This document shows, piece by piece, positions 9,009-9,066 of a stretch of DNA of 64,000 nucleotides (its first letter is position 1; the number at the start of each line of letters is the position of its first letter). Below the pieces are notes generated by a model. It worked only from the letters and a program-made list of their open reading frames with translations, was not told where the DNA came from and searched no databases. This stretch comes from Escherichia phage A6-6: sequence record PQ510734.1; one strand, 5' to 3'. Position numbers and translations under genes: made by a program.

Positions 9009-9038
9009 GTTTACTTTCCGTTTGAGCTGTGGTACTAT
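9009..9038 (+). promoter_or_regulatory. early promoter with TACTAT -10 and conserved ACAACTATC leader
   Basis: gtttac 9009-9014, tggtactat 9030-9038; same core as at 14282 and 39615. Confidence 0.5.
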
Positions 9039-9066
9039 ACAACTATCGGATAAAGAGGAGAACATC

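Follow-up and report, generated by a model that had tools for sequence, protein, structure and literature searches.

A repeated T4-type early promoter and leader cassette in front of unrelated small genes of Escherichia phage A6-6

Introduction

The early promoters of bacteriophage T4 (Pe), compiled by Liebig & Ruger (1989, J Mol Biol 208:517, as cited in PMC9391042), have been described as 'uber' UP/-35/TGn/-10 promoters with further consensus regions besides (PMC2988021), and their GTTTAC element occupies positions -36 to -31 (PMC1524935). In PeSL cassettes, for which a T4/PST consensus of TTTACW-N17-TAYWAT has been given, the promoter is combined with a stem-loop, SD and ATG (PMC4122927; PMC2839356), and a stem-loop that overlaps the -10 constitutes a common PeSL class (Arbiol et al. 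2010, PMC2839356). The idea that such cassettes are recombination substrates is the published PeSL model (PMC4122927; PMC2839356), and experiments on RB49/phi1 have shown that PeSLs form mini-circles (PMC2839356). For RegB/S1, the consensus of strong cleavage sites is GG*AGRAYARAA (Durand et al. 2006, reviewed in PMC3014915).

Here we analysed a 64,000-nucleotide stretch of Escherichia phage A6-6 (PQ510734.1), hereafter the window, in which an earlier note had pointed out a recurring promoter and leader. The repeats are very probably paralogous copies of one T4-type early promoter sub-family fused to a short 5' leader. Such cassettes are already known as T4 early promoters and PeSL cassettes, and are ordinary for a T4-like phage.

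Results

The window is Tequatrovirus DNA (best match vB_EcoM_Ozark, 98%) and is colinear with the T4 minus strand from 68282 down to 820; its + strand thus corresponds to the one that carries the early and middle genes in T4. Sites that fit GTTTAC-N18-TAnnnT exactly were found 18 times on the + strand of the window and never on the - strand; the T4 count is 39 for the minus strand and zero for the plus strand.

A whole-window search returned three copies in all of the exact 18-mer TGGTACTATACAACTATC, at 9030-9047, 14282-14299 and 39615-39632 (cassettes A, B and C), the latter two of which have in common the 22-mer TGGTACTATACAACTATC + AACT (14282-14303 and 39615-39636). Variants with three mismatches lie at 58688-58705 (cassette D) and 12581-12598 (cassette E), and all copies, exact and variant, are on the + strand. 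The recurrence listed in the earlier note, including the variant at 58688, is hereby confirmed, and the variant at 12581 is an addition to it. That note placed GTTTAC 18 nt upstream of the repeat; this is the distance to TACTAT, equal to the canonical 17-nt spacer between TTTACN and TACTAT, and the distance to the start of the 18-mer is 15 nt. At three or fewer mismatches, 0.03 matches of TGGTACTATACAACTATC were expected from shuffles. A position matrix built from the 19 early promoters of the window, the three exact-copy members included, predicted 0.0026 exact copies, and none of 5000 simulated promoter sets held three identical 18-mers. A chance or low-complexity repeat is ruled out by the shuffles and the promoter-matrix simulation, and the motif is commoner than the window's early-promoter consensus predicts, contrary to the refuting condition named in the earlier note.

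The interpretation of the repeat as a promoter followed by a leader is borne out by the -35, the 17-nt spacer, TGn, TACTAT, SD, ATG and strict co-orientation with the genes, and it also fits the T4 early-promoter/PeSL consensus (PMC4122927). The -35 is exactly GTTTAC, as in the Pe consensus GTTTAC(A/T), at 9009, 14261, 39594 and 12560, and is replaced by ATATAC in cassette D and likewise in its T4 ortholog; TTTACN-17-TACTAT preceded by TGG was found at all five sites. An A/T-rich UP-like block, (T/A)AAAATTTTTTCA(C/T)AAAAC, stands at 39572, 58645 and 12537; the UP-like region at 9009 is supplied by the T-run of a terminator, and that at 14261 is weaker. Every cassette site is on the early-gene strand, with SD and ATG 28-49 nt after the -10. 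With T4 Pe the cassettes share GTTTAC at -36 to -31, TGn, the TAnnnT -10, an A/T-rich UP, the extra conserved positions, and placement 5' of small early genes on the counter-clockwise strand. No essential difference was found; the repeat corresponds to one sub-family (TACTAT + ACAACTATC), which makes up 8 of the 39 T4 sites. The exact copies are positional orthologs of T4 promoters: cassette A of T4 58780, which carries one mismatch (ACAACCATC); cassette B of T4 53943, with one mismatch in 104 nt and TTTACA-17-TACTAT with TG; and cassette C of the imm.1 promoter (T4 27080), in the unit after gene 43. Cassette D is the T4 promoter upstream of cef. Coordinates are collected in Table 1.

Table 1. 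Anatomy of the five cassettes and adjoining features in the window.
Feature	Position	Strand	Details
Terminator ending the rI.-1 homolog	8976-8993	+	hairpin AGTCTCCTTCGGGAGACT + T-run; 7-pair stem, 4-nt loop, T-tail
Cassette A core	9009-9047	+	GTTTAC 9009-9014; 15-nt variable spacer; TGG 9030-9032; TACTAT 9033-9038
Cassette A ACAACTATC	9039-9047	+	predicted start A9045
Cassette A SD and 62-aa ORF	9055-9255	+	GAGGAG 9055-9060; ATG 9067; T4 mobD.5 homolog, PHROG 3024
Terminator upstream of cassette E	12511-12530
Cassette E promoter 1	12537-12598	+	UP 12537-12559; GTTTAC 12560-12565; TGATACTATAGACCTATC 12581-12598
Cassette E cargo, 66-aa ORF	12628-12828	+	PHROG 6200
Cassette E promoter 2		+	GTATAC 12829-12834; TATAGT 12853-12858; inverted repeat 12839-12850 / 12857-12868
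Cassette E 3' end	12876-12888	+	GGAGAATAAAATG; leads into nrdC.10 homolog
Cassette B core	14261-14303	+	GTTTAC 14261-14266; TGG 14282-14284; TACTAT 14285-14290; ACAACTATCAACT 14291-14303
Cassette B hairpin (predicted)	14273-14313	+	spacer GTTCCTCTGTGGT pairs with ACTACGGAGGAAC; -19.4 kcal/mol, z = -4.78
Cassette B SD and 175-aa nrdC.8 homolog	14306-14846	+	GGAGG 14306-14310; ATG 14319; PHROG 2274
Cassette C	39572-39636	+	UP-like TTAAAAATTTTTTCACAAAACT 39572-39593; GTTTAC 39594-39599; TGG+TACTAT 39615-39623; ACAACTATCAACT 39624-39636
Cassette C SD and 78-aa ORF	39648-39894	+	GGAGAATAAAA as SD 39648-39658; ATG 39658; PHROG 4189
Variant cassette D	58645-58742	+	UP-like 58645-58666; degenerate -35 ATATAC 58667-58672; TGG+TACTAT 58688-58696
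Cassette D inverted repeat around -10	58673-58685 / 58703-58715	+	perfect, 13 bp; -20.2 kcal/mol, z = -5.26
Cassette D 3' end		+	GGAGAATAAAA 58730-58740; ATG 58740

T4 itself has eight copies of TGGTACTATACAAC(T/C)ATC, located 5' of motA, frd.3, e.8, mobD.5, nrdC.10, nrdC.8, imm.1 and denB-proximal ORFs, and the 50-nt core with leader was found at 1940 places in 539 phage records, or about 3.6 per genome, almost all of them Tequatrovirus. Promoter features are not annotated in the T4 RefSeq record. The earlier note's statement that the cassette stands in front of unrelated genes holds. In the window the three exact copies precede homologs of mobD.5 and nrdC.8 and the 78-aa ORF; when T4 and eight IMG/VR contigs are taken together with the window, 12 protein families without mutual BLASTP similarity stand behind the exact 18-mer, of which eight are T4 genes (frd.3, imm.1, nrdC.10, e.8, motA, mobD.5, nrdC.8 and ndd.4) and four are ORFs absent from T4. 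No Pfam match was found for the window ORFs downstream of the cassettes, each of which belongs to a different PHROG of unknown function.

The conservation of the sub-family is confined to blocks. Over the eight T4 loci, the information content was 2.0 bits for the -35, 2.0 for TGG + -10 and 1.94 for the next 9 nt, as against 0.73 for the 15-nt spacer. A recent copy would have kept the spacer too, and the invariance of the blocks therefore looks like the outcome of selection and not of recent copying. Judged by their sequences, the copies of the 18-mer form a distinct sub-family of paralogs. The bases after the -10, ACAACTATC(AACT), had been regarded as a leader in the earlier note; ACAACT is most likely an untranscribed discriminator (-6 to -1), with the A of ATC as the probable transcript start. 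The invariance of ACAACTATC is not explained by known RNA polymerase contacts. CTATC(AA) at the same position also occurs in other early-promoter sub-types and in RB69, hence most of ACAACTATC(AACT) is general start-site consensus. A second pair of early promoters with an identical 18-mer, TGGTATAGTAATCTTGTC, was observed at 9821-9838 (mobD.2a side) and 45331-45348 (dmd side); it represents another promoter sub-family, and its downstream arm pairs with the spacer. In the T4-like genome IMGVR_UViG_2974787500_000001, two cassettes were without the UP + -35 half, and a terminator hairpin was fused directly to the last spacer bases before TGGTACTAT; these truncated cassettes may be 'half-PeSLs' relying on the extended -10 alone.

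The homology of the leaders at 39631 and 58705, which the earlier note had proposed, is real and takes the form ATCAACT(ACT)GATAC...TTGGAGAATAAAATG; its 3' end is GGAGAATAAAATG. The cassette leaders are predicted to be unstructured (MFE 0 to -0.8 kcal/mol, z +0.7 to +1.2). A known structured RNA in the leaders was rejected, as no Rfam family was found in the window and folding was no better than that of shuffles. The duplex energies of the leaders with rnaC and rnaD, two small RNAs of T4, stayed within the range of shuffled controls, on which ground the leaders were rejected as rnaC/rnaD targets. The window contains only three exact matches to GGAGRAYARAA (12876, 39648 and 58730; 0.37 expected), all at cassette 3' ends, in unstructured leaders. 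As in RegB/S1 sites, GGAGAATAAAA matches the consensus exactly and lies in intergenic translation-initiation regions of early genes, in RNA predicted to be unstructured; as a difference, cassettes A (9055) and B (14306) have GGAG but deviate in the A-rich 3' part of the consensus, and cleavage in this phage is a prediction from the sequence. Since the GGAGAATAAAA leaders match the RegB/S1 consensus, the 'shared regulatory target' suggested in the earlier note acquires concrete candidates, namely the host sigma-70 RNA polymerase and, for these leaders, RegB.

The stem-loop of a PeSL is represented by the terminators at 8976-8993 and 12511-12530, the former of which lies directly upstream of cassette A and whose stem-loop is part of a PeSL-type unit, and by the hairpins at 14273-14313 and 58673-58715, which enclose the -10. 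No stem-loop adjoins cassette C; the closest terminator hairpin is about 100 nt upstream. Inverted repeats around the -10 are enriched among early promoters generally, a placement that corresponds to the PeSL class with a stem-loop over the -10. Among T4 promoters, an inverted repeat of at least 6 bp brackets the -10 in 41%, versus 8.9% of mismatched spacer/downstream pairs; with a minimum of 8 bp, the two figures are 15% and 0.5%. Such repeats were observed in the window at 9800-9845, 12829-12875, 45310-45352 and 58665-58722 and in T4 at 65799, 57990 and 73939; in them the spacer pairs with +1 to +12, the arms differ between promoters, and the predicted energies are -17 to -20 kcal/mol with z of -5 to -6. 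The RB69 nrdC.8 promoter keeps a -10-bracketing repeat, with different arms.

In the predicted hairpin of cassette B, which none of 200 shuffles equalled in stability, the -10 falls into the loop and the nrdC.8 SD into the 3' arm. As modelled, this hairpin is possible in read-through RNA only; RNA started at the promoter would lack the 5' arm. The nrdC.8 promoter spacer is thus an anti-SD sequence, and the predicted 13-bp stem would bury the GGAGG SD in read-through RNA. Similar TCCTC-type spacers were seen at 4813 (regB promoter) and 56526. Promoter-dependent translational discrimination by hairpins occurs in T4 for genes of the e, soc, 49 and I-TevI type. Like those, the 14273-14313 hairpin is predicted to sequester the SD in read-through RNA only; unlike those, which have late or middle promoters, nrdC.8 has an early one.

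Some of the surrounding regions show differences between phages. Immediately after cassette C, 316 of 535 records (59%) have the 78-aa ORF (39658-39894), which T4, T2 and T6 lack. The ORF has a hydrophobic, signal-like N-terminus, is preceded by the gene 43 terminator/promoter and followed by imm.1, and shares ATGAAAAT at its start with the start of imm.1. Behind the cef-upstream promoter there is an 89-aa ORF (58740-59009, PHROG 3720), of which T4 keeps the ATG and the last ~65 nt only, a remnant that suggests an internal deletion in T4. A tandem MotB paralog (58213-58632, 139 aa; Pfam motB, PHROG 1671) follows motB, is absent from T4, and is flanked by a 13-bp direct repeat, GCATAAAGTTTAA, at 58191-58203 and 58637-58649. 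Phage Shinka (162 kb) has a 4.5-kb deletion from window position 9040 to 13556 with ~12 nt of microhomology at the junction; its interpretation as a cassette-to-cassette deletion was rejected, the left end being in the -10 of cassette A and the right one in the nrdC.10 coding sequence.

A rearrangement involving cassettes was found between nrdC.11 and nrdC.10, where homology between the window and T4 breaks off immediately 3' of the -35 and is restored from the SD onwards. Between these breakpoints the window carries a promoter-ORF66-promoter module (~12537-12891). Of 657 matching records only 54 have this module, which also occurs in Mosigvirus (~94% identity in O157tp3, 94.7% in ATK47) with unrelated flanks; it has the appearance of a recent transfer between genera, with promoter cassettes at its limits. 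A promoter-ORF75-promoter insertion lies 5' of motA in one IMG/VR contig. Spacers and leaders also reassort among loci, as the T4 frd.3 spacer is the nrdC.10 spacer and the frd.3 spacer differs in other phages. The loci at 9009 and 14261, by contrast with that region, were found whole in 497 of 501 records and in every one of 498 close relatives. Of 22 indels between the window and T4, three touch a cassette (2.97 expected, P = 0.61), and a general enrichment of indels at cassettes was rejected. Clean absences relative to T4 at 22531-22534, 23810-23830, 28607-28632, 47936-47957 and 61962-62027 coincide with the T4 nrdD intron/I-TevII, mobC, mobB, dam region and mobA/60.1 region; many of the indels between the window and T4 are explained by such polymorphic homing-endonuclease genes and introns.

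Discussion

The cassettes of the window resemble PeSLs (Arbiol et al. 2010; Comeau et al. 2014) in the combination of an AT-rich region, early promoter, stem-loop 5' of or over the -10, SD and ATG, in their repetition before unrelated small ORFs and, at some sites, in insertion or replacement junctions that fall inside the cassettes. They differ in that cassette C is without an adjacent stem-loop and two exact copies are at evolutionarily stable loci, and the traces of putative recombination between copies seen here are comparative ones. The earlier note's suggestion that the cassettes are a recombination substrate is supported at 12538-12891 and after 39594, but not at the stable 9009 and 14261 loci, nor by any enrichment of indels. 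The same division applies to the cassettes as boundaries of variable regions in relatives: the ORF66 module and the 78-aa ORF agree with this role, and the intact 9009 and 14261 loci do not.

An alternative view is that the copies are alike purely through functional convergence or conservation, each being tuned to the same host RNA polymerase optimum, with no role in shuffling and with the indels beside some copies coincidental. The stability of the loci of cassettes A and B, two of the exact copies, in 98% or more of relatives, the indel count and the invariance of the functional blocks next to a variable spacer all accord with it. However, both junctions of the ORF66 module lie inside cassettes and the module recurs in another genus between unrelated flanks, a comparable insertion precedes motA, spacers and leaders have been exchanged between loci, and mini-circle formation by PeSLs has experimental backing (PMC2839356), so that we regard a purely functional account as rather unlikely. 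An autonomous mobile element, MITE- or transposon-like and with its own spreading machinery, is hardly credible: the cassettes are indeed multi-copy, dispersed and sometimes flank variable ORFs, but they have no terminal inverted repeats, target-site duplications or associated transposase, are all co-oriented with transcription at exactly SD distance 5' of start codons, and keep stable orthologous positions across hundreds of genomes.

A different question is raised by the bases that follow the -10. ACAACTATC(AACT) could be an operator for a dedicated DNA- or RNA-binding regulator of the phage or host, for instance the early-promoter shut-off mechanism or an Alt-dependent effect, and the cassettes would then form a co-regulated sub-regulon. 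In favour of this, the -10 and the 9 nt that follow it are equally invariant at the eight T4 loci while the neighbouring spacer is free, and the corresponding positions of other early promoters diverge between the window and T4 much as spacer does (5.2% vs 4.3%). In addition, early shut-off is not understood, and Alt stimulates only some early promoters (PMC3014915; PMC2988021). Nevertheless, no protein or RNA partner was identified, ACAACTATC(AACT) is without dyad symmetry, and most of it coincides with the general start-site consensus, CTATC(AA) being found elsewhere and in RB69; we therefore consider an operator improbable. We would give equally little credence to the broader proposal that ACAACTATC, at no fewer than eight loci, marks a distinct co-regulated class of immediate-early promoters whose reader is not plain sigma-70 polymerase, for which the early-promoter shut-off mechanism and Alt-modified polymerase are candidate readers. 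If it were true, motA, imm.1, e.8, frd.3, nrdC.8, nrdC.10, mobD.5 and variable ORFs would constitute a sub-regulon.

Returning to the preferred reading, paralogous copies of one T4-type early promoter sub-family with a short leader, the anatomy, copy number, distribution and junctions of the cassettes were observed in the sequences, and a mode of action may be proposed from the anatomy and from established knowledge of sigma-70 and T4, from which we infer timing, strength, start, RegB cleavage and recombination. Just after DNA injection, unmodified host sigma-70 polymerase would bind the UP-like block, the -35 (G)TTTAC(A/T), TGn and TACTAT, open the DNA through the ACAACT discriminator and start at about the A of ATC. 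The unstructured leader with its GGAG SD would give strong translation of whichever small early gene follows, and in the GGAGAATAAAA versions the SD would double as a RegB/S1 target, by which early mRNAs could later be inactivated. Transcription reading through from upstream would be kept out of the unit by terminators that precede the promoter or by hairpins around the -10. Selection on promoter function would keep the 18-mer identical and leave the neighbouring spacer free, and the dispersed co-oriented repeats of ~50-100 bp would provide occasional homology for the phage recombination system, such that small ORFs may be gained, lost or swapped at junctions within the cassette, as in the PeSL model.

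Conceptually, nothing new emerges, as T4 early promoters and the PeSL shuffling model are found again. For annotation, the cassettes should help to recognise genuine early transcription units in T4-like genomes and to choose the correct start codons of small ORFs. They may in addition point to sites of accessory-gene swapping between phages, and such genes are often anti-defence candidates.
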